Source: Nemertoderma westbladi (taxonomy: Eukaryota; Animalia; Xenacoelomorpha). Taken from it: 64,000 bases of DNA. Below, in pieces: positions 27,174 to 64,000 of this stretch. The number at the start of each line of letters is the position of its first letter. The first letter of the stretch is position 1. The translations under genes and the position numbers were made by a program. Location of the stretch: the NCBI GenBank assembly GCA_032718475.1, contig JAUCBJ010003233.1, positions 8,742-72,741 on the forward strand. Reading direction: 5' to 3'. The notes beneath the pieces are model-generated. The model was not told where the DNA came from, made no database searches, and saw only the letters and a program-made list of their open reading frames with translations.

Positions 27174-27307
27174 AAACTATTTTGCGTGAGGCAAGCCACA
27201 TACAGTAGGGGATGTTGGATGTTACTAAAATAGGCACACAGTCAAACCCCACCGGGAGGAGGCACACAGGCCCACACTAAAATAGGCACACAGTCAAACA
27301 CAAGCGG

Positions 27308-29625: not shown

Positions 29626-29636
29626 GAGCAGTACTG

Positions 29637-29993
29637 TACTGTGGTAAGGCTGTCAGGTGTAGGCCTATTATTTGGAGCAGTTGCCAATGCAGCAATTTAC
29701 ATTGCTTCCATTTCATTTCTAGAACTAGTAGATTACGTAGTTGAATATATGGAATAGTTAGTTATTAGTGAATATTGCTTCTTGGATTGAAAAATTATGA
29801 AATATATAGAAAGTAGAAGTTTATTTACATTGCTTCCAGTGTGCTGGTCACTACTGTCTACTGGTGTATTCAGGTATTCCAGTATTGTAGAATTTAGGCC
29901 TACGGCTGTATGGTACCTAATGCTGTAATGCAAATTGCTGCATTGGCAACTGCTCCAAATACTAGGCCTACACCTGACAGCCTCACCACAGTA
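29637..29993. repeat. 69-bp inverted repeat with ~220-bp spacer
   Basis: 29637-29705 is the reverse complement of 29925-29993 with about 4 mismatches. Confidence 0.85.
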
Positions 29994-33512: not shown

Positions 33513-34038
33513 CTTTACCACCTATACCTATACCAGTAGTACCAGTAGGCTTACGACGTAGTTTATGTGTTCAACAAAAATCACATAAAAATTAAGCAAC
33601 TAACTTTTATAATTTTTTTCAATATTTACTAGCTAGTAAAACAAACACTAGCTGTAGCTACCAAAATAAAAATATTTACTAAGGTTCTATAATTAACTAG
33701 GCACTTGGCAAGGAAGTAGGACTAGAACATTCTACAAGAACATTCACCTAAAACACTCAAAAACACGATAAAATCAATGTTCAAAAATGGTCACACGAGC
33801 TATACTAGGGAGTGGCGTTACGTTACGTAGGGTAGGTTTGGTAGTGGTACCGGTACTGGAGGTTAGCTGTATGTTTGTTTCTGTGTTTGTTACATGTGTA
33901 AGTTCAGACTGGAAAGTTTGAAATGAAAGAACTGAACAGGAAGCAGTACCGGTAGTAGCCAGCCGATAAGTACAGTATAATTTACAGTTACACGATCCAT
34001 CAAAACAGTCGAAATCGTTGATTTAGAAAATAATAATC

Positions 34039-43000: not shown

Positions 43001-46000
43001 GTCGGACTCAGAGGCGGCTGATGAGATGACAATGTCGATGTCGGACTAAGAAAAGAGGCGGCTGATGAGATGACAATGTCGATGTCTGAGTCTGAGGCGG
43101 CAGATGAGATGACAATGTCGATGTCGGACTCAGAGGCGGCTGATGAGATGACAATGTCGATGTTGGACTAAGAGGCGGCAGATGAGATGACAATGTCGAT
43201 GTCAGACTCAGAGGCGGCTGATGGGATGACAATGTCGATGTTGGAGTCTGAGGCGGCAGATGAGATGACAATGTCGATGTCGGACTCAGAGGCGGCTGAT
43301 GAGATGACAATGTCGATGGCGGAGTCTGAGGCGGCAGAAGAGATGACAATGTCGATGTCGGACTCAGAGGCGGCTGATGAGATGACAATGTCGATGTCGG
43401 ACTTAGAGGCGGCTGATGAGATGACAATGTCGATGTCGGAGTCTGAGGCGGCAGATGAGATGACAATGTCGATGTCGGACTCAGAGGCGGCTGATGAGAT
43501 GACAATGTCGATGTCGGACTAAGAGGCGGCAGATGAGATATGACAATGTCGATGTCGGACTCAGAGGCGGCTGATAAGATGACAATGTCGATATCGGAGT
43601 CTGAGGCGGCAGATGAGATGACAATGTCGATGTCGGACTCAGAGGCGGCTGATGAGATGACAATGTCGATGTCGGACTTAGAGGCGGCTGATGAGATGAC
43701 AATGTCGATGTCGGAGTCTGAGGTGGCAGATGAGATGACAATGTCGATGTCGGACTTAGAGGCGGCTGATGAGCTGACAATGTCGGAGTCTGAGGCGGCA
43801 GATGAGATGACAATGTCGATGTCGGACTCAGAGGCGGCTGATGAGATGACAATGTCGATGTCGGACTTAGAGGCGGCTGATGAGATGACAATGTCGATGT
43901 CGGAGTCTGAGGTGGCAGATGAGATGACAATGTCGATGTCGGACTTAGAGGCGGCTGATGAGCTGACAATGTCGGAGTCTGAGGTGGCAGATGAGATGAA
44001 AATGTCGATGTCGGATTCAGAGGCGGCTGATGAAATGACAATGTCGATGTCGGACTAAGAGGCGGCTGATGACATGACAATGTCGATGTCGGACTCGAGG
44101 CGGCTGACGAGATGACAATGTCGATGTCGGACTTAGAGGCGGCTGATGAGATGACAATGTCGATGTCGGAGTCTGAGGCGGCAGATGAGATGACAATGTC
44201 GATGTCGGACTCAGAGGCGGCTGATGAGATGACAATGTCGATGTCGGACTAAGAGGCGGCAGGTGAGATGACAATGTCGATGTCGGACTCAGAGGCGGCT
44301 GATGAGATGACAATGTCGATGTCGGACTAAGAGGCGGCAGGTGAGATGACAATGTCGATGTCGGACTCAGAGGCGGATGATGAGATGACAATGTCGATGT
44401 CGGACTCAGAGGCGGCTGATGAGACGACAATGTCGATGTCGGACTCAGAGGCGGCTGATGAGATGACAATGTCGATGTCGGACTAAGAGAAGAGGCGGCT
44501 GATGAGATGACAATGTCGATGTCGGACTTAGAGGCGGCTGATGAGATGACAATGTCGATGTCGGACTAAGAGGGGGCTGATGAGATGACAATGTCGATGG
44601 CGGACTCAGAGGCGGCTGATGAGATGACAATGTCGATGTCGGACTTAGAGGCGGCTGATGAGATGACAATGTCGATGTCGGAGTCTGAGGCGGCGGATGA
44701 GATGACAATGTCGTTGTCGGACTCAGAGGCGGCTGATGAGATGACAATGTCGATGTCGGACTAAGAGGCGGCAGGTGAGATGACAATGTCGATGTCGGAC
44801 TCAGAGGGGGATGATGAGATGACAATGTCGATGTCGGACTCAGAGGCGGCTGATGAGACGACAATGTCGATGTCGGACTCAGAGGCGGCTGATGAGATGA
44901 CAATGTCGATGTCGGACTAAGAGAAGAGGCGGCTGATGAGATGACAATGTCGATGTCGGACTTAGAGGCGGCTGATGAGATGACAATGTCGATGTCGGAG
45001 TCTGAGGCGGCCGATGAGATGACAATGTCGATGTCGGACTAAGAGGCGGCAGATGAGATGACAATGTCGATGTCAGACTCAGAGGCGGCTGATGGAATGA
45101 CAATGTCGATGTTGGAGTCTGAGGCGGCAGATGAGATGACAATGTCGATGTCGGACTCAGAGGCGGCTGATGAGATGACAATGTCGATGTCGGAGTCTGA
45201 GGCGGCAGATGAGATGACAATGTCGATGTCGGACTAAGAGAAGAGGCGGCTGATGAGATGACAATGTCGATGTCGGACTTAGAGGCGGCTGATGAGATGA
45301 CAATGTCGATGTCGGAGTCTGAGGCGGCAGATGAGATGACAATGTCGATGTCGGAGTCTGAGGCGGCTGATGAGATGACAATGTCGATGTCGGACTCAGA
45401 GGCGGCTGATGAGATGACAATGTCGATGTCGGACTCAGAGGCGGCTGATGAGATGACAATGTCGATGTCGGAGTCTGAGGCGGCTGATGAGATGACAATG
45501 TCGATGTCGGACTCAGAGGCGGCTGACAAGATGACAATGTCGATGTCGGACTCAGAGGCGGCTGATGAGATGACAATGTCGATGTCGGACTCAGAGGCGG
45601 CTGATGAGATGACAATGTCGATGTCGGACTTAGAGGCGGCTGATGAGATGACAATGTCGATGTCGGAGTCTGAGGCGGCAGATGAGATGACAATGTCGAT
45701 GTCGGACTCAGAGGCGGCTGATGAGATGACAATGTCGATGTCGGACTAAGAGGCGGCAGATGAGATATGACAATGTCGATGTCGGACTCAGAGGCGGCTG
45801 ATAAGATGACAATGTCGATATCGGAGTCTGAGGCGGCAGATGAGATGACAATGTCGATGTCGGACTCAGAGGCGGCTGATGAGATGACAATGTCGATGTC
45901 GGACTTAGAGGCGGCTGATGAGATGACAATGTCGATGTCGGAGTCTGAGGTGGCAGATGAGATGACAATGTCGATGTCGGACTTAGAGGCGGCTGATGAG

Positions 46001-49000
46001 CTGACAATGTCGGAGTCTGAGGCGGCAGATGAGATGAAAATATCGATGTCGGATTCAGAGGCGGCTGATGAAATGACAATGTCGATGTCGGACTAAGAGG
46101 CGGCTGATGACATGACAATGTCGATGTCGGACTCAGAGGCGGCTGACGAGATGACAAAGTCGATGTCGGACTCAGAGGCGGCTGATGAGATGACAATGTC
46201 GATGTCGGACTCAGAGGCGGCTGATGAGATGACAATGTCGATGTCGGACTAAGAAAAGAGGCGGCTGATGAGATGACAATGTCGATGTCTGAGTCTGAGG
46301 CGGCAGATGAGATGACAATGTCGATGTCGGACTCAGAGGCGGCTGATGAGATGACAATGTCGATGTTGGACTAAGAGGCGGCAGATGAGATGACAATGTC
46401 GATGTCAGACTCAGAGGCGGCTGATGGGATGACAATGTCGATGTTGGAGTCTGAGGCGGCAGATGAGATGACAATGTCGATGTCGGACTCAGAGGCGGCT
46501 GATGAGATGACAATGTCGATGTCGGAGTCTGAGGCGGCAGATGAGATGACAATGTCGATGTCGGACTCAGAGGCGGCTGATGAGATGACAATGTCGATGT
46601 CGGACTTAGAGGCGGCTGATGAGATGACAATGTCGATGTCGGAGTCTGAGGTGGCAGATGAGATGACAATGTCGATGTCGGACTTAGAGGCGGCTGATGA
46701 GCTGACAATGTCGGAGTCTGAGGCGGCAGATGAGATGAAAATGTCGATGTCGGATTCAGAGGCGGCTGATGAAATGACAATGTCGATGTCGGACTAAGAG
46801 GCGGCTGATGACATGACAATGTCGATGTCGGACTCAGAGGCGGCTGACGAGATGACAAAGTCGATGTCGGACTCAGAGGCGGCTGATGAGATGACAATGT
46901 CGATGTCGGACTCAGAGGCGGCTGATGAGATGACAATGTCGATGTCGGACTAAGAAAAGAGGCGGCTGATGAGATGACAATGTCGATGTCTGAGTCTGAG
47001 GCGGCAGATGAGATGACAATGTCGATGTCGGACTCAGAGGCGGCTGATGAGATGACAATGTCGATGTTGGACTAAGAGGCGGCAGATGAGATGACAATGT
47101 CGATGTCAGACTCAGAGGCGGCTGATGGGATGACAATGTCGATGTTGGAGTCTGAGGCGGCAGATGAGATAACAATGTCGATGTCGGACTCAGAGGCGGC
47201 TGATGAGATGACAATGTCGATGTCGGAGTCTGAGGCGGCAGATGAGATGACAATGTCGATGTCGGACTCAGAGGCGGCTGATGAGATGACAATGTCGATG
47301 TCGGACTTAGAGGCGGCTGATGAGATGACAATGTCGATGTCGGAGTCTGAGGCGGCAGATGAGATGACAATGTCGATGTCGGACTCAGAGGCGGCTGATG
47401 AGATGACAATGTCGATGTCGGACTAAGAGGCGGCAGATGAGATATGACAATGTCGATGTCGGACTCAGAGGCGGCTGATAAGATGACAATGTCGATATCG
47501 GAGTCTGAGGCGGCAGATGAGATGACAATGTCAATGTCGGACTCAGAGGCGGCTGATGAGATGACAATGTCGATGTCGGACTAAGAGGCGGCAGATGAGA
47601 TATGACAATGTCGATGTCGGACTCAGAGGCGGCTGATAAGATGACAATGTCGATATCGGAGTCTGAGGCGGCAGATGAGATGACAATGTCGATGTCGGAC
47701 TCAGAGGCGGCTGATGAGATGACAATGTCGATGTCGGACTTAGAGGCGGCTGATGAGATGACAATGTCGATGTCGGAGTCTGAGGTGGCAGATGAGATGA
47801 CAATGTCGATGTCGGACTTAGAGGCGGCTGATGAGCTGACAATGTCGGAGTCTGAGGCGGCAGATGAGATGACAATGTCGATGTCGGACTCAGAGGCGGC
47901 TGATGAGATGACAATGTCGATGTCGGACTTAGAGGCGGCTGATGAGATGACAATGTCGATGTCGGAGTCTGAGGTGGCAGATGAGATGACAATGTCGATG
48001 TCGGACTTAGAGGCGGCTGATGAGCTGACAATGTCGGAGTCTGAGGTGGCAGATGAGATGAAAATGTCGATGTCGGATTCAGAGGCGGCTGATGAAATGA
48101 CAATGTCGATGTCGGACTAAGAGGCGGCTGATGACATGACAATGTCGATGTCGGACTCGAGGCGGCTGACGAGATGACAATGTCGATGTCGGACTCAGAG
48201 GCGGCTGATGAGATGACAATGTCGATGTCGGACTCAGAGGCGGCTGATGAGATGACAATGTCGATGTCGGACTAAGAAAAGAGGCGGCTGATGAGATGAT
48301 AATGTCGATGTCTGAGTCTGAGGCGGCAGATGAGATGACAATGTCGATGTCGGACTCAGAGGCGGCTGATGAGATGACAATGTCGATGTTGGACTAAGAG
48401 GCGGCAGATGAGATGACAATGTCGATGTTGGAGTCTGAGGCGGCAGATGAGATGACAATGTCGATGTCGGACTAAGAGGCGGCTGATGAGATGACAATGT
48501 CGATGTCGGAGTCTGAGGTGGCAGATGAGATGACAATGTCGATGTCGGACTTAGAGGCGGCTGATGAGCTGACAATGTCGGAGTCTGAGGATGCAGATGA
48601 GATGACAATGTCGATGTCGGACTCAGAGGCGGCTGATGAGATGACAATGTCGATGTCGGACTTAGAGGCGGCTGATGAGATGACAATGTCGATGTCGGAG
48701 TCTGAGGTGGCAGATGAGATGACAATGTCGATGTCGGACTTAGAGGCGGCTGATGAGCTGACAATGTCGGAGTCTGAGGTGGCAGATGAGATGAAAATGT
48801 CGATGTCGGATTCAGAGGCGGCTGATGAAATGACAATGTCGATGTCGGACTAAGAGGCGGCTGATGACATGACAATGTCGATGTCGGACTCGAGGCGGCT
48901 GACGAGATGACAATGTCGATGTCGGACTCAGAGGTGGCTGATGAGATGACAATGTCGATGTCGGACTCAGAGGCGGCTGATGAGATGACAATGTCGATGT

Positions 49001-49398
49001 CGGACTAAGAAAAGAGGCGGCTGATGAGATGACAATGTCGATGTCTGAGTCTGAGGCGGCAGATGAGATGACAATGTCGATGTCGGACTCAGAGGCGGCT
49101 GATGAGATGACAATGTCGATGTTGGACTAAGAGGCGGCGGATGAGATGACAATGTCGATGTTGGAGTCTGAGGCGGCAGATGAGATGACAATGTCGATGT
49201 TGGACTAAGAGGCGGCAGATGAGATGACAATGTCGATGTTGGAGTCTGAGGCGGCAGATGAGATGACAATGTCGATGTCGGACTCAGAGGTGGCTGATGA
49301 GATGACAATGTCGATGTCGGAGTCTGAGGCGGCAGATGAGATGACAATGTCGATGTCGGACTCAGAGGCGGCTGATGAGATGACAATGTCGATGTTGG
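34039..49398. repeat. 39-bp satellite array (~390 monomers) with higher-order structure
   Basis: Consensus gaggcggctgatgagatgacaatgtcgatgtcggactca; recurrent +5, +2 and -6 bp variants. Confidence 0.98.
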
Positions 49399-51009
49399 TG
49401 TTCGCGGTATTTCAACTTTCCATAACGCGAGTTGAATATTTTTGTATTTATTTAAAATTGATTATTCCGATATTACTACTGGGTGCGGGACCATGGGTTT
49501 TGGGCACATTCAATAAACTGGGGGCGATTTATGGGCGAACTTTGGGGCAACTTACAGGGTACGGGAATAATTTCATAGTTATAAGGGCCAGGGGGGATGG
49601 AAAATGCAAGCAGTATTCAGGTTAGCCTGAGTACTATTAGGCCCTGGCCAACTTCCTGCTGCCTGTAGGGGTGGATTTGGTAATGCGCCAGGCCTAAAGG
49701 ACAAGGACTGCCCTTAGCGGTCCCTGGCCAACAGCAGCCATTACGAGACTGAAAAGAACTCGGACCGCTGACTGCTTGTGTCAGGGATTTGCGACGGGCA
49801 CCGACGGCCCCTTAGTAGCCAAGCCGTTCTGGTTCTCGATGATCGTTCCCTTCGGGGTTCGTGAGGGGTGGAGCGGACACGCGAACGGGTGGCCAACTAA
49901 CGACTGCCCCCTGACCTAAGCCGTACTGGTTCTCGATGACCGATCCCTTCGGGGTTCGTGAGGGGTGGGACGGACATGCGAAAGGGCTGGCCACAGGACG
50001 GGTTTGACGAGAACTGCCCTTAGCGGTCTCTGGTCAACGGCAGCTACTACGAGACTGAAAAGAACTCGGAACGCTGACTGCTTGTACTGGGATTTGCGAC
50101 GGGAACCGACGACAGACCCCTTAGCCAAGCCGTACTGGTTCTCGATGATCGTTCCCTTCGGGGTTCGTGAGGGGTGGAACGGACACGCGATGGGGTCGAA
50201 AGACAAAGGACTAGACTCGACTAGACTCTACAGGCCTACCGACTGTTCGGAACAGTTTCTCGGCTGCCGAAGCGACTACGAGCCTGAAAGGGACTCGGAA
50301 AGCCTAGGTGGTTGGGTTTCTGCGATGAAACGACGGACCCCTAGCCAAGCCGTTCTGGTTCTCGATGATCGAACCCTTCGGGGTTCGTGAGGGGTGGAAC
50401 GGACACGCGAACGGGTCCACCGACATGACAGACTCCTAGCCAAGCCGTACTGGTTCTCGATGACCGATCCCTTCGGGGTTCGAGAGGGGTGGTACGGATA
50501 CGCGACAGAGTCTACCGACTGGACCGACCCTTAGCCAAGCCGGGCTGGTTCTCAATGATCGTTCCCTTCGGGGTTCGTGAGGGGTGGAACGGACACGCGA
50601 CAGGGTCGACCGACACTGACACTACGGCACTAAGACTAGGACCGAGGGAAAATCTGGGGAATATTAGGTAGGCTAAAATTCTGAGCAAACAGTGGGTAAT
50701 TAAATAATATACTGTAGGGATTTATATTATCGTGTATAATTATTGTGAATATTTGGTGTATATTGATTTGGGGAAGCCCAAAATTATTCTTAATCAAGTT
50801 TCAATGATGTTGAACAGGTTTCAACTATAGGAAGTTACATTAAAGAGTATATCCAACTAATGCAGCTTTTTATCAACCGCAAACTTGCATCTCAGAAAAC
50901 ATTCCCTCCCCACAATCAATATCCGGTGACTGGCCGGGGCTCGGTGGTCTGTTAAGTCACGTCTCCAGCATCGGCGTTTTTCCCCCCTGGTGTAGGGATA
51001 ACGGCAACA
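49399..51009 (+). repeat. 5' LTR (1611 bp)
   Basis: tgttcgcgg...ggcaaca; about 9 substitutions vs the 3' LTR by eye. Confidence 0.97.
49824..50592 (+). ncRNA. Array of six 53-nt K-turn/cUUCGg hairpins (5' LTR copy)
   Basis: CCGUWC UGG UUCUC GAU GA YCG..CCC UUCG GGG..CG U GA GGGG UG GWACGG at 49824, 49921, 50130, 50350, 50445, 50540. Confidence 0.75.
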
Positions 51010-51011
51010 AA

Positions 51012-51024
51012 ATTAAGAATAATT
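51012..51024 (+). promoter_or_regulatory. Atypical primer-binding site complementary to LTR 50782-50794
   Basis: ATTAAGAATAATT lies 2 nt after the LTR and is the exact reverse complement of AATTATTCTTAAT; no TGG tRNA-type PBS next to the LTR. Confidence 0.6.
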
Positions 51025-51260
51025 CATGCGGTTAATTTTGACAGGGTGTCAAAATTAAGGATAATTACGGTCAACTTCAACTGGTGGAAGTTGAGAATCC
51101 TTCAATACTCTTCAAAAACTCTCTACGTGCTTGCCAGCACCCACTACGAGGAAACTCTGGTATTTGAGTTGAGACAAAGTCGTGGTTTAATTAAGCAACA
51201 AACTCGATCTAACCAACTCGTAGTCGGCAGATCACATATTTGGAGAGTTGTTAACAGGGA

Positions 51261-51452
51261 ATGGAAGTATCGATCACACCCATTGATATAATTCAAGTTG
51301 AGCCAGGAATCTGGCACGTCGAAGTTGAGGTACAAGGAACGAACGTTGGACGATTCAGGATTACTGTTCGGGTGGTCCAAGCTGAGTACAATACCTACGA
51401 GGAACTGTTTTACGACATCGCGTATCTAGCCATCGATGAGGCGTTACAATGA
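51261..51452 (+). CDS. 63-aa upstream ORF overlapping the gag start (ATGA)
   Basis: Its TGA stop overlaps the gag ATG at 51449-51452; alternating beta-strand pattern followed by an acidic helix. Confidence 0.5.
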   Translation: MEVSITPIDIIQVEPGIWHVEVEVQGTNVGRFRITVRVVQAEYNTYEELFYDIAYLAIDEALQ

Positions 51453-54400
51453 CAACAAATAACGTATCCGATACCGACGAGATGGATCACCACACAGACT
51501 CGGAAGCCGACGAGGTACCAAACGTCAAGAACATGACCCGTCGGTTAGGGGCTCTTAAAGGCGGAGTAACCCGAGCGTATCAACGGATGGAGAAACAACT
51601 CAAGGGAGTCAAAACCCCCCTCAATGAGGTACAAACTCAGCTTCAAAGTATCCGAAATATCCTACAGCGGTACGAAAGAATGATACAGGCGTACCAAGAG
51701 CTCGTTCCCCCCACCGATCAGGAAAACTACCCCAAGTTGGAAGAACACGTTGTACATCTAGATGGGTTCCGCAAACAACACCGGAGGACCCTCAGTCTTG
51801 TGAGAGGCTATGAGGAACAGTATTACAAGAGGGCTGACGCGGAATCAGTACGATCCTCCAGCATCAGGACAACAGTACATCGAAAGAGAACGGGGTCCGC
51901 TAGAAATCAGCACTCCAGCGCTAGGAGCGAGATATCCGGCTCGGCGCGCAGTTCTCAAGGGGCGCCGCCACTCCGAGACCAACTGTGAGAACGGAAGGCA
52001 TTAGCCCTCAAAGCTCGGATGGAAGATGAGTATATTCAACTGCAAGCCGAGCAAGATGTATTAGCCGCCGAAACACAAAAGCGAGAGGCCGAACAAGCGG
52101 CCGAACGGCAGGCCGAACAACGTGAACAGGAGGCCGAACAACATAGACGAGAGGCCGAACGGCAGGCTGAACAACGTGAACAGGAGGCCGAACAACATAG
52201 ACGAGAGGCCGAACGACAGGCCGAACAACATAGACGGGAGGACGAACGACAGGCCGAACAACGCAAACAGGAGGCCGAACAACATAGACGAGAGGCCGAA
52301 CGACAGGCCGAACAACATAGACGGGAGGACGAACGACAGGCCGAACAACGCAAACAGGAGGCCGAACAACATAGACGAGAGGCCGAACGACAGGCCGAAC
52401 AACATAGACGGGAGGACGAACGACAGGCCGAACAACGCAATCAGGAGGCCGAACAACGCGGACGAGAGGCCGAACGAGAGATCGAACAACGTAAATGGGA
52501 AGCGGAAATGCGTAAACAACACGCCGAGGCCCAAGCAATTCTCATCCACAAAAAGAATGCGGACATTGCAAAACTCGCAGAATACGAAGCCGCACTTATC
52601 GAACGAGATATTCAACTCTACGAGGACTGGGAAAGGGATATAGATAAGGAATATGAACCAATTCCGGTACCGGAGTTAGAAAAGTCATTTACACCAACAG
52701 CGGCGAAACCTCCGAAACCCGAGATCCCGCCTACCAAACAGTCTACGCTATCGGCACAAGCCCCGGTGTTCCATCCCCCACCAGCTACGCTAAAGAATGA
52801 GGAACCTTATTTCCCATCCAACACCACGACAGCGAGTGTACCCAAGTACGAGCCTGAAAGGGACTCGGAACGGGACGCCACTCCCCGATCTAACAACCCA
52901 TTTACATCCACACCACAAACTCGTAGCCGCGTCATTATTAAAACTCCACCTATTATTGATCCATCAAGTATGGGAGTGAGTGCTAATAACTATAACCCTC
53001 CGAGTCACTCTAGTTCAGACGACGTCAGCATCATCCGGGCGTTGGAGAACCGCCTTGCCATGCCTAAGATGGAGATTCGCACCTTCGAAGGAGATCCCGT
53101 CGATTACCTCAGATTCAAGAAACGGTTCTTTGCGCAGATCGGATCAACGGACATAGCCGACACACAGAAATTGGTATATTTATCGCAATACCTGGGTGAC
53201 AAACCACGCAGAATTGTTGCATGTTTTGAAGGAGGTTCTCATGAGGCATACTATGACGCATGGAAAACCCTAGATAAAAGATACGGAAATACCGGAACTA
53301 TAATTAATAAAACTCTAGAGAGACTGATACAGGACGCGGGATCACTAGGGGACCCACAGAACATACAGGAATTCTCCGACTCTATGAAGGATGCATACTA
53401 TACTTTGAAACCCTTAAATAAGGAGGACCAGGTGAACAACATTCTAAACCTCCGACAGATCGCCAAGAAGTTCCCCGGATGGCTACAAAGTAAGTGGGCT
53501 TATAAATGTGTAGATCTCCGGCGCAGACATCCAGATCGAGATCCTAGCTTCCTTGAAATGTCGGCATTCCTGGACGATATCTCCGAAGCCATGAATGACT
53601 CAATGTTTTCAAAACAAAGTCTCGCAAAGTTGGACGGAATAGAGAGCAACTCCAGGAGTAAGATAACCCCTCCGAAACCGAGATTCCGCCCCCCACCGAT
53701 AAGTACGATGGCCATTACCATGGCCGAGGATTCCGACGACGAAGACTACGAGGAACCGACATCCGCCGAGGAATGGGCATGTTATCTCGCGAGTTGGGCA
53801 CCCGAAAGGGAAGGCGTCACAAATTCCCTGCTCTGTCTCTTCTGTGGGGAGAAACACAAAGTGGAATTCTGCAGAAAGTTTCAGTTCGCCGAACTCGTCC
53901 CACGCTTCGAGGCGATAATGAAACACCGAGGATGCTTCCGGTGTCTTGGAACAGGTCACTATGTTCGGGAGTGCGACCAAAGATCATGCTGTACAGTCTG
54001 TAACGACCAACGCCATCACACGCTCCTCCACATCCCCGCGAACTTCGATTTTACTACCCTCCCCTTTCGGATCGAAGCCAGGCGAAGAGGAGAAACAAAC
54101 CACATCTTCAAAGGAACCCGGACAACCCAACGGAGAGAAACCAACCCGTTTAAGATCTCCACCGATACACCACAAGTAACCAATATTTCGGCCACGATTA
54201 ATCTTATAAATCGCCGCTACATGGTTTTCGCAAAGGTAATCCCAGTAAGGATCCAAGGAGTCAGCAAATCTTTGACGACACTCGCGTTCCTCGATAACGG
54301 GTCTGACGGAACCATCATCGACCGGGATTTCCTCGAGCAACTCGGCCTAGAATATGAACCTTGTAAACGGCCCATACAAACCATCACCGATAACAGAGAA

Positions 54401-57400
54401 GTAGAGTCCGGGGAGGTACAACTCCAGATGGAAGGAGTGATGAAGGGCTACGAAACGGCTAAGTTAACCATCAAGAACGCCTTGGTACACACAGACCTCC
54501 GGGTGCGGTTCCGACAATCAGCCGAGTACGCCCCCCTCATACAATTGGACCGAGACGATGTAGACCTGAGGTGTCCGCAGTTGGACGTGAACCGTATCAC
54601 CCTACTGATTGGACTTGATACACCGGAACTACACATCCCCACCGGAGATATCGCTCGATCTATAAACCAGGATGATGGATTTTATGCTGAACGAACAATA
54701 ATGGGATGGACACTCTGCGGCATTAAGGAGGAAACTACGGACACCTATACCTACCTTCCTAAATGTCAGATTAAAGAGAATGTAACCTCTGTGGGTTATT
54801 GCTCAGCTTCAGATCTTGACGAGGATTTGTTCCTGGAAACCGAGAAAACCCAACGAGAGATGACGAAATATTTTAATTTGGAGACCCAGGAGTTCGCGGA
54901 AAAGGACGAAAACCCATCCGAAGAGGACCAATATTGTATGGACGTTCTCGACCAGGCCACGTTTAAAGACGGACATGGGTGTTCACCTATGTTATGGAAG
55001 GACCCAAACAAACCAATGGCAAACAACGCCAGCATGGCACTTAGGCGACTTAAAGGGATTCTACGCCGGCTGAATGACCAACCCGAGATAAAGGAGAAAT
55101 ATAATACCGTAATCCAAGGATATCTCGATGATGGATTAGCAGAAATGGTACCACGGAATGAACTGCAAGGTGGTGAAAGAACATATTATCTCCCAACCCA
55201 CTATGTAGTAGAAGCCCGCAAAGGTGGGAAAATCCGAGTGGTAAATGATGCTGCCGCTATGTACCAGGGCGAATCCCTAAACAGTCAACTTTACACGGGA
55301 CCCAACATATATAGCACACTCATTGGCGTATTGATCAGGTTCAGGGAAAACCGGGTAGCATTCACCTGTGACATCAAGGCCATGTTTCATCAAGTTCGTA
55401 CGTTACCAAGAGACTCGGACTGTCTACGTATCCTATGGACGGATAAAACACTCACTCAACAGGAGATTAGCCAACTCACGATCAAGGATGTAGACGTAAT
55501 GCGTATGGTCGTCAGGATCTTCGGCGCTAAGGACTCGCCGGTAGCATGCAGTGACATGCTAAAGAGGACAGCAACTATGTGCGAAAACGAGTTCCCTCCA
55601 ACCGTCATAGAAACCATTCGACGATGCTTCTACGTGGACGACGGATGCGCCGGCGCGGATAATGTGGATGAGGCATATCGGCTAGCAATGGGGATGGTAG
55701 AATGTCTGAAGAAAGGAGGGTTTCCGCTCGTGAAATTCAGATCCCACGACAAAACACTTAAGGAAAAGTTTCCGGAGGACATCCGGCTGGATAATAACAA
55801 GATGTATTCGGAGGATGTGGAACATCGTGTACTTGGGATTGAATGGGACATAGAATCAGACGAATTCATCTTCAAGTATAAACCCCTACCCAAGCCTATG
55901 ACAAAAAGGGGATGTTTGTCGATAAAAAGCGCCATCTTCGACCCACTAAATTTCATATCTCCAGTAACCTTGGCCGGAATGAACCTGATTAAGGAAATGT
56001 GGATAGAAGGACTGGGATGGGACGAAGAGCTCCCCCCATACCTCAGCGTCAAATGGAGAAAATGGACGGAGCAGCTCGAACACCTACATCTTATGCGGAT
56101 ACCTAGACCGTTCTTCCTCGATAAATTGCCCACCGATATCTTCCAGCTCCACACCTTTTCGGATGCTTCAAATACCGGAATCGGCGTAGTCACCTTCCTA
56201 CGGAGACTAAGTAATGATGGAAACGGCGATACAAGCTTCTTATTCTCCAAAGCAAAGACAGTATCCGGGGAATTCGTAGCAACGATCCCGAGACTCGAGC
56301 TACAAGCTGCAGTTTGGGCAGTAAGACAGAATCGCATGGTCATGCGGAATCTACGGATCCCCATAGAATCACAACACTTCTGGGTAGATTCGAGTATAGT
56401 TCTCTATTATCTCCACTCTCCATCACGGCGTCACACCACGTTTGTTGCAAACCGAGCCACGGAGATTAAACAGTGTACCGGCCGAGAACAGTGGCATCAC
56501 GTGAACGGGAAGGAAAACCCAGCGGACTTATCAAGCCGAGGCGCCACCCCAAAACAACTCGGTAAAAGTGAACTCTGGCTTACAGGCCCGGAATTCCTAC
56601 GGCAGCCACAATTAACATGGAGTACCCGATTCGACCCCGAGCTCGATAGCGGAAAATACTCCGAGGACGATAAAGAGATCCGTAAAATCCATCGAAGCAA
56701 CGCGGTGGAAATTTATAGTTGTCTGACTGAGCCTGCAAAGGACTCGGGCAGGCACTATAACGTCGCGACGATCACCCAACTAGCGGCGTCTTTACATCGG
56801 TTGATCGAGCGAACTTCATCCATGAGACGGCTCGTCCACCACGTTATAACCCTTCGCAACTTCCTACGGTGGAAAAACAACAAACCGATAGTTCAACGGA
56901 ATATACAAGAACTCATTATCGCGGAGAAGTGTATTGTTAGATATGTCCAGAAAGAAAGTTTCCCCGATGAATGGGAACAACTTAGTGCGGGCAAAACGTT
57001 GAAACCGGACAGCCCAGTCTACCAACTGAGACCAATGATGGGAGAGGACGGACTGATCCGACTGAATACCCGGATGGCAAACGCCCCGGTCCAATATGAG
57101 GTTAAATACCCAGCGCTTCTGCCCGGAACGTCGACACTAGCTAAGCTATTAATTCTACAATGTCACGAGGACAACCACCACGCAGGACAGAATTGGATTA
57201 TAGCTAATATAAGACAAAGATATTGGATCACCCACATCCAGCCACTGATCCGGAAAGTGTTGAAACGTTGCTTCACCTGCAGATGTTACCTAGCGCCACC
57301 AATCACCCAAAAGATGGCCGACTTACCAGCCACCCGTCTACAAGCGGATTCCCCACCATTCTACGTCACCGGAGTGGACTGTTTCGGACCGTTCACGGTT

Positions 57401-58336
57401 ATTGAACGACGATCCAACATCAAATGCTGGGGAGCCATCTTCACCTGCCTAAGATCTAGGGCAATTTACCTAGATATCGTGGTAAATCTGACACAACACG
57501 CATTCATCAACGCTCTGCGTCGGTTCGTGGCGAACAACGGGACATGCCGCCACATGTATTCCGATAATGGTACAAACTTTGTGGGAGGAGAAAGAGAACT
57601 TAGAGAGGCGATCGAGGGATGGTTTACCGATAACACTGCATCCCAAGTCTGGAAGGAACACCAGATACAGTGGCACTTCCAGACCCCCTTAGCACCCCAT
57701 ACGAGCGGGGTATGGGAGAAACTGATCGACCTAGTGAAACGATCCATGCGCGTCGCTCTAGGCGATACCCGGGTAACCCATGACACCCTCCGCACAACAT
57801 TCTGCGAGATCACGGCTACCCTGAACAACCGACCCATTGTTCCTATCCGCGACGACCCCACAGACCTGGAACCCCTCACTCCTAACCACTTACTGGGGAG
57901 ACCCAAAACCCACCTCCTCCCGGAAACCATGTTCCCGGATCCCAACGAGATCGCGAAACACACAAACTGGAAAAAGGCCCAAGCGTTGGCAGCGCATTGG
58001 TGGAGAATTTGGGCCCAGGAATACCTCATAACCCTCCGGACCAGGAGGAAATGGAACAACACCTACCGGAACGTCACAGTTGGCGACATGGTACTAGTTA
58101 AAGAAGATCTCAAAGACCGCGTTCACTGGCCTGTGGCGCGGGTCGTGACCATACACCCAAGCAAAGACGGACTTGCGAGGACTGTGACGATACGAACGAA
58201 ATCGGGCCACTACCAACGCCCCATCCAAAAGCTGTGCCTTCTTGAAGGCAATGATAGCGGTGATTCTACGAGAGGTGATAAGATCCCTACTCAAGATACT
58301 GCTGTGGACATCGGTGACAATGATAAATGTGTTTAA
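51449..58336 (+). CDS. Bel/Pao Gag-Pol polyprotein with a single in-frame TGA (51986-51988)
   Basis: ORFs 51449 and 52019 share a frame; FEGDPVDY, three Cys/His knuckles, protease LDNGS, RT YVDD, RNase H FSDAS, integrase GVDCFGP/SDNGTNF/WEKL. Confidence 0.93.
52085..52490 (+). repeat. Coding tandem repeat forming an E/R/Q-rich coiled coil in Gag
   Basis: Repeated gaggccgaacaacatagacga / cgacaggccgaacaa units (EAERQAEQHRR). Confidence 0.9.
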
Positions 58337-58616
58337 ACCCTTCTCATCATGTTGACAAACTCCTTTTAAACTGTGATTTATCGACAACGAGTTATGGACC
58401 CCCTTTAAACCAACTGTAACCACGCAATGGTATTTGTGTTTCCTCGTGTGTTATGTGGAGTCCAGCGTCACCCTGCAGATGTTTCGGCTGACGCAGGGTC
58501 GTTTATGCATTGTTTACCCTGATTTTGGTCATCAGGACCTACGATATTGGATTATTGGAAATGGAAAAGATTTGAAGTGGAATTCATTGTATTCATCGCA
58601 GTATGTTATGTTGTCC

Positions 58617-59032
58617 GTTGCGTGCGCAGTTCGGGGCGTAGGCGGTGTAACGAGTCCAGCTGTAGATCCCGGATCGCCGCGCAACACCCCCTCTATCCCG
58701 TTATTCTGGTGGGTCCATGGTGCATCCACATGACTTCGAAGATAGAGGGTTTTATGTTTCTCAGTCGCGTTATTCTGGTGGGACCGTTGCGTGGATTTTG
58801 GGGCGTAGGCGGTGTAACGAGTCCAGCTGTAGATCCCAGAATGTTGCGTAACCCCATCCCACATGACTTCGTCGACTGAGCTTTATGTTGTTGGGAGTGT
58901 TATTCTGGTGGGTCCATGGTGCATCCACGTGACTTCACTCTCAGCGTCTTCATTGTCCGTTACGTGCGCAGTTTGGGGCGTAGGCGGTGTAACGAGTCCA
59001 GCTGTAGATCCCAGATTGCCGCGTAACACCCC
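58617..59032 (+). ncRNA. Triplicated ~75-nt structured RNA in the pol-ORF2 intergenic region
   Basis: Copies at 58617, 58786, 58959 with invariant core ggggcgtaggcggtgtaacgagtccagctgtagatccc and a compensatory closing stem. Confidence 0.6.
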
Positions 59033-59581
59033 TTCCACGACAAAGATTAACCAAAGAAAATGATTGAATATAGTTGGAAACGATGAAAAGGATCAGACAA
59101 CTCTACTATAAACCTGAATGATGACGTGTATACTGATGAAAATGTAATGATGCGCACCCTGGTGCTGCGCTTATAACAAATGATGATAGCCGGGGGGCTA
59201 TAAACCCAATGATGATGTGGAAATAAATAAATATGAAATAAATGGTGGAAATAAATGTGTTGAAATATGTGGAAATAAATGAAATGAGATGAAATAATAA
59301 TGAAATGAAAAAAGAAAAAAAAAAGGTATAAAAAAGTCTAAAGAAAAGAATTAGAAAAAAGAAAGGACAAAAAAGTCATAAAAAACTGGTTGGATATTAT
59401 GTATAGCTATAGTAACTGTAAATGCTGAATGTATTAGCAATAAGATGATAGATGCCTATATAGCAATGTTATTAATAAACTGAATTAAATAAAAAACTGA
59501 ATTATTCTGCTATCGCTATAGTTTCAGACTTTCTGGACTTATAATTAACTGATCTAATTTGTAACGGATATAATCGTAAAT

Positions 59582-62182
59582 ATGGACCCAAATCGCCAAA
59601 TTATCGGCGAATTACGTAACACGATAGATCTACTGGAATATTCGCAACCCGGATCCCCTGACTTTGATACAAATTGGAACACTCTGCTAAATGAGAACGT
59701 GCGAGTCATTAAATTCACCGGGCGAGAGGGACCGGATTCTAAGAATCTACTAGCCCTCCGGTTAGCCGATGCTAGTACGAGACTGAAAAGAACTCGGAAC
59801 GCAAAGGCAACCGGAGGGGACGATTCGTCGTTTTGGGAAACGTTCCGGCAGAGCGTCTACAGATCCCGATGTTTGATCTACGACAACGAGGGAAACGCGA
59901 CGCCCACCTCAAAAGCGATTACGTTGGCGAGATGTCAAAGTTTCGTCGACGACAAGAGTACATACCTCGCCCACTGGGGAAACCTGTCGGAGTGTACGGC
60001 GACGCTTCGAGAGGAACGCATATCGATTATCCAAAACCGCGACGACTACCAGGAAAAGTACGGGGCGAAAGAATACGGTCGATCCTTAGTCGTCGTCCTC
60101 GGAACCCTGGACGGTTTGGTACTGGTGTGCCGAATATTCCCGACACCCAGACAGGAAGTGCAGACAGCCGGAGCGATCTGGTTGCTGCCTCCGGAAATCC
60201 AAAAGATCCTCTTCGACTTCGACGTCATTAAAATCGGGGCGGATATCAAGGCGGACGTCCGGAACGACTACGCGAACGCTCCTGCAGGAAGAAACCGACG
60301 AGACGACCTCAACGCCCTTAGCCATTGCATCGACACTCAAACGCTACTAGCCTGGGTACGATTCGCCGAGTTCATGCGAGGATTCCAAGAGGTGAGACCG
60401 ACGAAATCAGGGATCGGCTACCTCGCTGTGCTCAACGGCGGTATCGACTTCAAACCCCAGAAATTCCGGGACTATAATAAAATATATGGTGGATACCCGG
60501 GATTGGAAATAAAGAGCGAGCGAGAGGGTCGATGGAAGGACGTTGATCGGAAGTGGACGATACACCAAAGGTGGGAGAATCCCGATCGACGGAACTACGT
60601 TTACGTCGTTATGGAATGCTACACCGTCGCTAAGTTTATCTGTAAAACTCTAGATAACCTCATCACGGCGGTCCCCCTTTCCTTTGTCGACTACGACTGG
60701 AACGAGGTTATAAACCACGCGTTTAAAGCGGTCGAGAACATTACACCGGGAGAATCAAAAACGCCCGCCGTTATCGATTCCTGGGACGAGAGCGGACCTT
60801 ACGACATCCCTACGATTACCGAACTTCTCGGTGCGGAGGAGCCTCTGATCTCTTCGGAAGGAGAAGAGATATGGCTAAACGAGGGTGTTCTACTCTCCAC
60901 CCCGAAGCGACAACTCGAGCCGGAGGCCGCGTATGGACCGGCCGCCAAACGGGTTGCCTCGGCCGAACCGATGAAGAGAGCAGGCGTTTACACCCCACGC
61001 GGCTCTGGTAGCCCCACGAGGGAGGTGGCTACTACAGCTGCATTGAGCGACTTCGGCGACATATGCCAACGGTTATCCCCGTATCCTTTCCCGGGCGGCG
61101 AAGATTGGTCGTCGGAGATTCCGAGTACCAGCCACCAACGGACCCGCTCAGCGATACTGGTCGAGGAGGGCCCCAGCGATGCGCCGACACCCGACGATCT
61201 CCTCGGTATCCCTCCGTCGAAAACCCCGGCACCTCTTCGTCGACCAGCGGTGGCTACTACACCCGCCGTTCCTCAGGACCCTATGCGACTAACCCGTTGG
61301 TACGCCGAGCAAACTGAATGGATCCACCGCCAGAAACGGTCATCCGAGTTGAGACCAGCGGGACACAAAGAAGGTTATCGGAGCGAGAACCTACTACGCA
61401 AAAGCCTAGCATTCCGCGGGCTACCGACCACCGAGAATATTCCGAAGAGCGACCGACGACTCGAATACTACGTCGGCGTCCCGATTCCGATATTTCCTGG
61501 TCGAGAGATGCAGTTGGAGGTATGCGGCGACTGCGGTTCGGAGCAGTGCCCACGCAGCAGAAGGAATCGGGTTACCGATTCTTGCCTCCAGCTCCTCGGG
61601 ATACTCTATTGCCCATACTGCGCGACATCAGGCCACGACGTTTCCGTCTGCCCGATCCTTTATAACCTCTGCACCACGTGCGGTTTCCGTGGACATTCCT
61701 CTAGCCCCCGCTGCTATATCAAATGTCCAACCAAAGACGTTACCGCTATGGGAAATATGGTCATGTTTGAAACATACGCAAACAGCCACTTAAAGACCAA
61801 GATTCGGAGAAACGCTCGGAATATTGCGCAGGAGATGGCGTGTGGATATTTCTCCTTCCCGGAACGCCTCCACACGTCGGCCACGCTACCTTTCCATTAC
61901 GTGGATCTGCAACTGAGCGCCGGATTATTCGGTCCATTTGAAGTCATTAGACGATTATACTCGTATAAAGAGGAGTTCGGTGACGGAGAATGGTTCCTAG
62001 AGGCACGCAAATCTGAGTTGGAAAGACGAACCGACATGATCCCCATGCCTTCGAAAGGAAGAGCCGCCAGGAGACAAGCCGAAGCGTTACTCACGATGGA
62101 TGTTGACGCTCCTCTACCAGCCATAGCGATCGATGAGAGTCGACGGGCGAAGAGACGAAAGGCGTATCAGAGAAAGAAATAG
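59582..62182 (+). CDS. Accessory ORF2: DEDDy/WRN-like 3'-5' exonuclease domain plus CCHC zinc knuckles (866 aa)
   Basis: ExoI IYDNEG; LPPEIQKILFDFDVIKIGADIKAD (ExoII); CIDTQ; YVVMECY (ExoIII, E for D); CPYCATSGHDVSVC and CTTCGFRGHSSSPRC. Confidence 0.8.
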   Translation: MDPNRQIIGELRNTIDLLEYSQPGSPDFDTNWNTLLNENVRVIKFTGREGPDSKNLLALRLADASTRLKRTRNAKATGGDDSSFWETFRQSVYRSRCLIYDNEGNATPTSKAITLARCQSFVDDKSTYLAHWGNLSECTATLREERISIIQNRDDYQEKYGAKEYGRSLVVVLGTLDGLVLVCRIFPTPRQEVQTAGAIWLLPPEIQKILFDFDVIKIGADIKADVRNDYANAPAGRNRRDDLNALSHCIDTQTLLAWVRFAEFMRGFQEVRPTKSGIGYLAVLNGGIDFKPQKFRDYNKIYGGYPGLEIKSEREGRWKDVDRKWTIHQRWENPDRRNYVYVVMECYTVAKFICKTLDNLITAVPLSFVDYDWNEVINHAFKAVENITPGESKTPAVIDSWDESGPYDIPTITELLGAEEPLISSEGEEIWLNEGVLLSTPKRQLEPEAAYGPAAKRVASAEPMKRAGVYTPRGSGSPTREVATTAALSDFGDICQRLSPYPFPGGEDWSSEIPSTSHQRTRSAILVEEGPSDAPTPDDLLGIPPSKTPAPLRRPAVATTPAVPQDPMRLTRWYAEQTEWIHRQKRSSELRPAGHKEGYRSENLLRKSLAFRGLPTTENIPKSDRRLEYYVGVPIPIFPGREMQLEVCGDCGSEQCPRSRRNRVTDSCLQLLGILYCPYCATSGHDVSVCPILYNLCTTCGFRGHSSSPRCYIKCPTKDVTAMGNMVMFETYANSHLKTKIRRNARNIAQEMACGYFSFPERLHTSATLPFHYVDLQLSAGLFGPFEVIRRLYSYKEEFGDGEWFLEARKSELERRTDMIPMPSKGRAARRQAEALLTMDVDAPLPAIAIDESRRAKRRKAYQRKK

Positions 62183-62337
62183 TGGATCGGGATATTCCAG
62201 GAACATTTATCGAACATTTATTTTTATACAAACTCTAGGCCAAATTAATTAAAAACTATGCAATATTAAATTTGGGTTTTTTATATTGGAATGACCTACG
62301 CAAACTCAATCGACCGACAGACTTCACGAAGGTCATT

Positions 62338-62346
62338 GGGGGGGAC
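62338..62346 (+). promoter_or_regulatory. Polypurine tract
   Basis: GGGGGGGAC immediately before the TG of the 3' LTR. Confidence 0.75.
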
Positions 62347-63957
62347 TGTTCGCGGTATTTCAACTTTCCATAACGCGAGTTGAATATTTTTGTATTTATT
62401 TAAAATTGATTATTCCGATATTACTACTGGGTGCGGGACCATGGGTTTTGGGCACATTCAATAAACTGGGGGCGATTTATGGGCGAACTTTGGGGCAACT
62501 TACAGGGTACGGGAATAATTTCATAGTTATAAGGGCCAGGGGGGATGGAAAATGCAAGCAGTATTCAGGTTAGCCTGAGTACTATTAGGCCCTGGCCAAC
62601 TTCCTGCTGCCTGTAGGGGTGGATTTGGTAATGCGCCAGGCCTAAAGGACAAGGACTGCCCTTAGCGGTCCCTGGCCAACAGCAGCCATTACGAGACTGA
62701 AAAGACCTCGGACCGCTGACTGCTTGTGTCAGGGATTTGCGACGGGCACCGACGGCCCCTTAGTAGCCAAGCCGTTCTGGTTCTCGATGATCGTTCCCTT
62801 CGGGGTTCGTGAGGGGTGGAGCGGACATGCGAACGGGTGGCCAACTAACGACTGCCCCCTGACCTAAGCCGTACTGGTTCTCGATGACCGATCCCTTCGG
62901 GGTTCGTGAGGGGTGGGACGGACATGCGAAAGGGCTGGCCACAGGACGGGTTTGACGAGAACTGCCCTTAGCGGTCTCTGGTCAACGGCAGCTACTACGA
63001 GACTGAAAAGAACTCGGAACGCTGACTGCTTGTACTGGGATTTGCGACGGGAACCGATGACAGACCCCTTAGCCAAGCCGTACTGGTTCTCGATGATCGT
63101 TCCCTTCGGGGTTCGTGAGGGGTGGAACGGACACGCGATGGGGTCGAAAGACAAAGGACTAGACTCGACTAGATTCTACAGGCCTACCGACTGTTCGGAA
63201 CAGTTTCTCGGCTGCCGAAGCGACTACGAGCCTGAAAGGGACTCGGAAAGCCTAGGTGGTTGGGTTTCTGCGATGAAACGACGGACACCTAGCCAAGCCG
63301 TTCTGGTTCTCGATGATCGAACCCTTCGGGGTTCGTGAGGGGTGGAACGGACACGCGAACGGGTCCACCGACACGACAGACTCCTAGCCAAGCCGTACTG
63401 GTTCTCGATGACCGATCCCTTCGGGGTTCGAGAGGGGTGGTACGGATACGCGACAGAGTCTACCGACTGGACCGACCCTTAACCAAGCCGGGCTGGTTCT
63501 CAATGATCGTTCCCTTCGGGGTTCGTGAGGGGTGGAACGGACACGCGACAGGGTCGACCGACACCGACACTACGGCACTAAGACTAGGACCGAGGGAAAA
63601 TCTGGGGAATATTAGGTAGGCTAAAATTCTGAGCGAACAGTGGGTAATTAAATAATATACTGTAGGGATTTATATTATCGTGTATAATTATTGTGAATAT
63701 TTGGTGTATATTGATTTGGGGAAGCCCAAAATTATTCTTAATCAAGTTTCAATGATGTTGAACAGGTTTCAACTATAGGAAGTTACATTAAAGAGTATAT
63801 CCAACTAATGCAGCTTTTTATCAACCGCAAACTTGCATCTCAGAAAACATTCCCTCCCCACAATCAATATCCGGTGACTGGCCGGGGCTCGGTGGTCTGT
63901 TAAGTCACGTCTCCAGCATCGGCGTTTTTCCCCCCTGGTGTAGGGATAACGGCAACA
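62347..63957 (+). repeat. 3' LTR (1611 bp), including six K-turn hairpins at 62772-63540
   Basis: Near-identical to 49399-51009 at offset 12948. Confidence 0.97.
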
Positions 63958-64000
63958 GTTGGACTAAGAGGCGGCAGATGAGATGACAATGTCGATGTTG
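63958..64000. repeat. 39-bp satellite resumes
   Basis: gttggactaagaggcggcagatgagatgacaatgtcgatg continues the interrupted monomer. Confidence 0.95.

Follow-up and report, generated by a model that had tools for sequence, protein, structure and literature searches.

Architecture of ORF2 and its host element

The window analysed here is a 64,000-nt stretch of Nemertoderma westbladi DNA (assembly GCA_032718475.1, contig JAUCBJ010003233.1, positions 8,742 to 72,741, forward strand). It contains a Bel/Pao long terminal repeat (LTR) retrotransposon with a third gene, open reading frame (ORF) 2, in the env position, between pol (stop at 58336) and the 3′ LTR (starting at 62347). ORF2 is predicted to encode a DEDDy-type exonuclease joined to zinc knuckles. 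Judging from sequence comparisons, it belongs to a gene family that has no Pfam match and is common to distant Bel/Pao elements, in which it occupies the same position. The position and open frame of ORF2, the like placement of its relatives, and selection in one clade of them are direct results of these comparisons. The gene comprises the following parts, in amino acid (aa) residues of its product:

59582..62182, + strand: ORF2, encoding 866 aa; a predicted DEDDy exonuclease followed by a linker, a module of three knuckles, a conserved tail, and a basic C-terminus
59696..60763, + strand: predicted DnaQ-like/DEDDy domain, residues 39-394; catalytic set likely D101, E103, D225, Y341, and E345
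60767..61501, + strand: Pro/Ser-rich linker, residues 396-640; not conserved, predicted to be disordered
61523..61585, + strand: knuckle 1, residues 648-668; C648, C651, C656, and C668, with no His
61610..61651, + strand: knuckle 2, Cys-Cys-His-Cys (CCHC), residues 677-690; exact C-x2-C-x4-H-x4-C spacing
61670..61714, + strand: knuckle 3, CCHC, residues 697-711; x5 before the last Cys
61763..61906, + strand: conserved tail, residues 728-775; FE..A....T..R, then G-F/Y-F, then Y; no named family

A first-pass annotation, made from the sequence alone, described an intact 866-aa frame in a Bel/Pao element, and the frame is indeed open across 59582-62182; from base composition, 866 open codons have a probability of ~1e-16. 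The Pro/Ser linker proposed there also holds, as residues 396-640 contain 12% Pro and 9% Ser and no structure is modelled for them. The accompanying claim of no signal peptide or transmembrane (TM) segment needs qualification. A hydropathy peak of 2.08 at residues 168-186 exceeds the usual TM cut-off but is modelled as strands 169-174 and 180-186; the absence of a TM segment is thus argued from the predicted fold, which puts this peak inside the nuclease sheet, and no signal-peptide predictor was run. ORF2 does not resemble an Env or membrane fusion protein: its N-terminus is polar, its C-terminus is basic, its sole hydrophobic peak lies in the nuclease sheet, and its fold matches are nucleases.

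The remaining parts of the host element are as follows:

49399..63957, + strand: complete Bel/Pao LTR retrotransposon of 14,559 bp, lying within a 39-bp satellite and flanked by the 5-bp target duplication GTTGG (49394-49398 and 63958-63962)
49399..51009, + strand: 5′ LTR, 1611 bp, TG...CA; hairpin A six times, hairpin E three times
51449..51988, + strand: ORF of 179 aa that shares its frame with gag-pol, one in-frame TGA (51986-51988) lying between them
52019..58336, + strand: gag-pol, 2105 aa; DUF1759, aspartyl protease, reverse transcriptase (RT) region, Peptidase_A17, integrase zinc finger, and DUF5641
59525..59527, + strand: candidate splice acceptor inferred from a pyrimidine-rich ...TTTCAG, 55 nt 5′ of the ORF2 ATG with no intervening ATG
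62338..62345, + strand: polypurine tract
62347..63957, + strand: 3′ LTR, 1611 bp

The insertion is young: the LTRs differ at 9 of 1611 positions (99.4% identity). Its pol carries Peptidase_A17, DUF1759, and DUF5641 in the order protease, RT, RNase H, integrase, as expected of Belpaoviridae, and the nearest proteins have the same Pfam set. Two TG..CA LTRs, the target duplication, and the polypurine tract agree with this assignment. The nearest relatives of the RT-RNase H region are at most 41% identical, and those that are named come from corals, echinoderms, a limpet, a hemichordate, and fish. The 179-aa ORF is likely the gag N-terminus, and the TGA either a break in the present copy or a read-through site. 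No tRNA-type primer site is apparent directly after the 5′ LTR: 51010-51100 does not open with TGG, and the first TGG-led candidate lies ~72 nt downstream, within a predicted hairpin.

Distribution and purifying selection

Scanning 1.84 billion representatives in full with HMMER yields seven protein relatives of ORF2 (best E 7e-13) and no close cellular relative; a family-profile search returned P0122 alone. Among metagenome contigs, 241 pattern matches reduce to 13 loci, while none of 89 pattern matches in viral contigs is a relative. Bel/Pao pol lies upstream on the same strand in seven of the 13 loci (L004, L005, L007, L008, L010, L011, and L013) and weakly in L003. The other five (L001, L002, L006, L009, and L012) show no upstream pol, and in three of these little or no upstream DNA is present. 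L005 and L007 represent one family (99% identical) in which an intact pol of >2250 aa precedes the ORF, with a gap of ~270 bp in L005; their RT-RNase H region is ~30% identical to that of the window element.

Sequence divergence reveals strong purifying selection on one clade of relatives. When domains of L001 are compared with those of seven same-clade loci, all 13 of 13 comparisons give a proportion of synonymous differences (pS) of 0.73-0.89, which is saturated, against a proportion of nonsynonymous differences (pN) of 0.20-0.34. Together with the pol genes upstream in the relatives' loci, these values bear out the view of ORF2 as a selected accessory gene of Bel/Pao elements. The values come from relatives, outside the lineage of the present copy. 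L005 and L007 differ by four synonymous and five nonsynonymous changes, too few for a selection estimate.

The history of the gene was traced on a pol tree of 42 rows: 38 of 120 matches, plus four rows of known ORF2 status, namely the window, L005, and partial sequences of L008 and L010. The ORF2-bearing rows require two changes, and a single clade is not rejected (approximately unbiased test, p-AU 0.126) on a tree in which long branches meet. The tree thus neither shows nor rejects a single origin of ORF2 among Bel/Pao elements.

Several relatives depart from the common arrangement. L001 (8507-10432) is intact and has no pol in the 8.5 kb upstream, and all seven same-clade loci compared with it are broken; L001 may be a host-domesticated copy. 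L002 (79-2022, P0123) joins a degenerate nuclease domain to two tandem three-knuckle modules, and L009 (3-3485) encodes a relative of at least 1161 aa with ~700 low-complexity residues ahead of the nuclease domain.

Predicted nuclease fold and active site

Residues 39-394 are predicted, from models, to adopt the DnaQ/DEDDy fold that the first-pass annotation had read from motifs. The single ORF2 protein finds nothing useful in Pfam, PDB-sequence, or word-indexed searches, Pfam and NCBIfam give no match above cut-off for 13 family members, and a single-sequence AF2 model reaches a predicted local distance difference test (pLDDT) score of only 34. Four lines of evidence, partly dependent on each other, nevertheless agree, and no other fold turned up:

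(i) An AF2 model built on an eight-row alignment was compared by VIA-align and Foldseek. VIA-align gives residues 39-394 a best Z of 12.4 (root-mean-square deviation 4.1, 175 aligned), with Nibbler at 12.1, EXD1 at 10.7, TbRND and RNase D each at 10.3, and WRN at 10.2; all 50 of the 50 matches listed are DnaQ/RNase D-like nucleases or polymerases bearing that domain.
(ii) Foldseek places RICE-like, EXD2, and Nibbler structures at the top of its list, with a best E of 0.003, in agreement with the VIA-align ranking but not with its significance.
(iii) A profile of seven relatives, which makes no use of the structural model, matches Egalitarian (E 0.0014) and EXD2 (E 0.04), and a wider family profile matches EXD2 at E 0.0013.
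(iv) In the ESM Atlas, 25 of 30 matches fall in PF01612 clusters.

Counting against the prediction, Foldseek returns no match at E 0.001 or better, and the AF2 model is weak (mean pLDDT 42.8, with 49 of 866 residues above 70) and inherits its register from one alignment, A3.

The acidic active site is likewise predicted, with Glu at the last position. The motifs named in the first-pass annotation lie at residues 99-103 (IYDNE), 217-225 (KIGADIKAD), and 341-345 (YVVME). Exo I probably sits at D101/E103 in the first of these. In an ungapped profile scan with five protein relatives, D101 ranks first of ~386 positions (z 5.1, or 4.0 without the D-x-E itself), and it again ranks first with three further families (z 4.5, or 3.0 without D-x-E). 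The Exo II Asp is D225, which occupies an invariant column of alignment A9 among the sequences aligning there and which the profile pairs with the Egalitarian motif. Exo III is probably Y341-x3-E345, with the Tyr kept and Glu instead of Asp. Across nine exonuclease-bearing proteins, with motifs placed by eye in alignments, D-x-E is kept in seven, Y-x3-D/E in seven (four Asp, three Glu), and the Exo II Asp in five or six. The final Glu also occurs in P0122 and P0125 and is therefore no private lesion of ORF2; in RICE1, Glu at this position is required for activity (PMC5451212).

Several observations weigh against this register and against an active enzyme. D101 falls to rank 2 or 11 once three same-clade sequences dominate the scan set, and of five MAFFT alignments, one (A3) assigns it to the Exo I column and the others (A1, A2, A5, and A9) do not; in A1, A2, and A9 that column is occupied by the I150-Q151 strand. 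A local hidden Markov model of eight relatives aligns neither candidate segment. If Q151 were the true Exo I position, the copy in the window would surely be catalytically dead, an outcome judged unlikely overall. Most catalytic residues have been lost from two of the nine proteins (P0126 and P0123), and the Exo II Asp is missing from L001. RICE1 is also non-canonical in further respects (PMC5451212).

Zinc-knuckle module

The first-pass annotation saw a Cys cluster followed by two CCHC knuckles. Both knuckles are confirmed, and the Cys cluster is better described as a degenerate first knuckle, three knuckle positions being typical of the relatives. The His of knuckle 1, read by eye, is present in eight of eight aligned relative sequences and absent from ORF2. 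A profile of the module matches Lin28 (E 2e-5) and Air2 as well as TbRND, for which knuckle matches have E 0.001-0.003. The ORF2 protein itself does not match Pfam zf-CCHC, AF2 gives the module a pLDDT below 50, and the leads from the ESM Atlas, DUF8363 and zf-CCHC, all stay below 0.9.

Structured RNAs and primer sites

The LTRs of the window element carry arrays of predicted hairpins. Hairpin A (87 nt) is capped by UUCG, contains a GAUGA/UGA internal loop, which we take to resemble a C/D-type kink-turn, and occurs in six copies per LTR, at 49805-50610 and 62753-63558. Hairpin E occurs at 49733-49773, 50039-50079, and 50268-50308 in the 5′ LTR, again in the 3′ LTR, at 52838-52878 in gag, and once within ORF2:

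59770..59803 (59767-59807 in the copy list), + strand: hairpin E copy inside ORF2, codons 64-74; relatives lack this stretch in alignment A3

The ORF2 copy holds a 27-nt exact match, compared with at most 16 nt in 100 codon shuffles. Five sequences show paired changes in two of nine pairs of the outer stem; the cap is GAAA, and the AGUA/GAA internal loop of both coding copies is presumably loop-E-like. Rfam gives no match in 49000-64000. The gap between pol and ORF2 (58600-59050) contains another stem-loop three times and a fourth stem-loop twice; six AATAAA occur in the A/T-rich stretch that comes next.

A partnership of ORF2 with hairpin arrays and an atypical primer site, as proposed in the first-pass annotation, finds no support as a rule for the family. 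In L005/L007 the LTR measures 243 bp and TGG comes immediately after it; in L008 the LTR measures 407 bp and TGG stands three bases past its end. Neither dispersed 14-mer arrays nor the LTR hairpin model is found in any of the 13 relative loci, most contigs of which hold partial elements. From these absences and the short LTRs it follows that the gene is older and more widespread than the arrays; it is independent of both the arrays and the odd primer site, and a complex-retrovirus-like RNA/protein system finds no support at the family level. A secondary link between ORF2 and the hairpins in the window element alone is possible. Primer maturation was considered as a family function and rejected: the ordinary primer sites and short LTRs of the relatives make it an unlikely reason for keeping the gene.

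Relation to known systems

DEDDy ORFs downstream of pol are already known from the bdelloid rotifer LTR elements Juno and Vesta and from Terminons (Rodriguez et al. 2017, PMC5408684; also PMC6431247 and PMC5718144). Rotifer ORF3 resembles ORF2 in being RNase D-like, following pol, and lacking a TM segment, and roles in 3′-end processing or silencing were proposed for it (PMC5408684). It differs, by description rather than sequence, in several respects: its hosts are gypsy-like and Penelope-like rather than Bel/Pao, its motif is DEED rather than D-E-D-D/E, and it is not known to have a triple-knuckle module, a Cys-His-Cys motif being described in some members. A further claim of the first-pass annotation, that nematode LTR elements carry such ORFs, could not be confirmed, and the rotifer paper does not mention nematode elements.

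A close match in design is the trypanosome RNase D TbRND (PDB 7C42; PMC7797062), a DEDDy exonuclease followed by several CCHC knuckles in which both parts are matched by ORF2. TbRND binds and cleaves RNA better by virtue of four CCHC fingers, whose combination with a DEDDy domain is called very unusual by the authors. TbRND is, however, a cellular enzyme that trims guide RNA U-tails, with four knuckles and a 28-aa linker, whereas ORF2 has three knuckles, a 245-aa linker, and a conserved tail. At 16% identity, and as the best match for neither part, TbRND likely reached the same design separately. Nibbler/Mut-7, EXD1, EXD2, Egalitarian, and WRN share the fold (Z 9.8-12.1 for Nibbler, EXD1, WRN, and Egalitarian) but are host genes at 11-16% identity, and no knuckle match to them was found. 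The structural scores are too close for a donor gene to be named.

The element shares with Belpaoviridae the gag-pol domain set and order, TG..CA LTRs, a polypurine tract, and a third gene in the env position (PMC8742986). The ICTV family profile gives gag, pol, and env-like genes only, describes Bel/Pao third genes as env-like, and lists genomes of 4.2-10 kb and LTRs of 0.2-1.2 kb (PMC8742986). The present element differs in its size of 14.6 kb, its 1.6-kb LTRs, its apparent lack of a tRNA-type primer site directly after the LTR, and a third gene predicted to be a nuclease rather than a membrane protein. No DEDDy or nuclease ORF in Bel/Pao was found in the literature; Repbase and subscription journals lay outside the search and may already note one. 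The word "exonuclease" does not occur in PMC3118150, PMC9094657, or PMC12440569. A DEDDy-type ORF2 is thus apparently new for Bel/Pao. The results point to an unannotated nuclease-plus-knuckle gene family that is kept across elements ~30% alike in RT.

Proposed function

From the modelled fold and by analogy with TbRND, ORF2 may be a knuckle-tethered 3′-5′ exoribonuclease that trims small RNAs, their precursors, or 3′ tails employed in defence against the element, a proposal held with about even confidence. The protein would be made from a separate, likely spliced subgenomic message using the candidate acceptor at 59525-59527. Its knuckles would hold single-stranded RNA and feed the 3′ end to the nuclease, as in the trypanosome enzyme. 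The most likely targets would be host small RNAs, their precursors, or the 3′ tails that mark element RNA for decay, and their trimming would shield the element against RNA-based defences of the host. A link between uridylation and reduced L1 retrotransposition has been reported (PMC11014359). Several points tell against the proposal. Uridylation hits L1 through a poly(A)-primed mechanism, which is not that of LTR elements. The two highest-ranking structural matches are a DNA-preferring dinucleotidase and NrnC, the latter reported to degrade double-stranded DNA, and DNA is therefore a possible substrate of ORF2.

The DNA-acting matches bear on a different idea, in which the nuclease would trim the 3′ ends of cDNA or primer, or proofread for RT, within the particle, with the knuckles serving as a second nucleocapsid. 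The fold fits DNA-acting domains of the Pol I, WRN, and NrnC type about as well as RNases, the knuckle profile weakly matches retroviral nucleocapsids, and both the element and its LTRs exceed the family ranges given above. The DEDDy domain of Dada DNA transposons is also proposed to process cleaved DNA ends (PMC3706591). Yet ORF2 is a separate gene with no fusion to pol, its best knuckle matches are the cellular RNA-decay factors Lin28, Air2, and TbRND, and it tracks neither large size nor odd primer because the relatives have short LTRs and ordinary sites; a role in replication appears rather unlikely. The best sequence-profile match, Egalitarian, suggests instead a non-catalytic RNA adaptor of the Egalitarian/EXD1 kind, which would bind hairpins of the element's own RNA so that it can be exported, transported, or packaged. 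Structures of Egalitarian in complex with RNA stem-loops, among them the I-factor signal, are on record. Some relatives are degenerate, P0129 and P0127 show the knuckle module without the nuclease part in their predicted products, and the Exo I register is uncertain; the recurrence of hairpin E in the LTRs, gag, and ORF2, with paired stem changes, would supply a ligand. Such an adaptor is nonetheless unlikely: the acidic residues are kept in most relatives despite ~25% overall identity, the arrays and LTR hairpin are missing from all 13 loci, the gag copy of hairpin E means that Gag or a host protein could be the ligand, and five copies leave the hairpin structure unproven.

A captured host gene carried as neutral cargo is very improbable and largely refuted. 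The insertion is young, so its open frame alone shows little, and for the env and GDSL ORF3s of rotifers no deviation from neutral evolution was seen within the genome (PMC5408684). Against this, the same architecture and position recur in elements ~30% identical in RT-RNase H, synonymous sites are saturated with low amino-acid change, and no close cellular relative exists among the 1.84 billion representatives. An RNA-trimming exoribonuclease, should its targets be small RNAs or decay tails, would constitute an enzyme-type counter-defence encoded by an animal retrotransposon. A bolder version is doubtful: that a widespread Bel/Pao lineage encodes an anti-silencing ribonuclease, the equivalent in an animal transposon of viral suppressor nucleases, which is tied here to structured-RNA arrays in a Rev/RRE manner, with one copy in its own coding sequence. 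A role for retroelement DEDDy ORFs was proposed in 2017; the soluble predicted domain of ORF2, its defined acidic residues, and the solved look-alike TbRND make it directly assayable.

Other features of the window

A Polinton/Maverick-like gene cluster occupies 573-20868, with Pfam matches to dUTPase and rve integrase and a weak ATPase match. It also includes ORFs without a Pfam match that we take to be polymerase-, capsid-, and protease-like. Inside this cluster, at 15569-17613, transposase-like ORFs show a weak RAG1 match (E 1.5e-4). Decayed Bel/Pao pol pieces lie on the minus strand at 24935-29761, beside a LINE-like endonuclease-RT, and share no nucleotide similarity with the 14.6-kb element. 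The 39-bp satellite interrupted by that element spans 33900-49398 and 63958-64000, ~15 kb in more than 360 copies.

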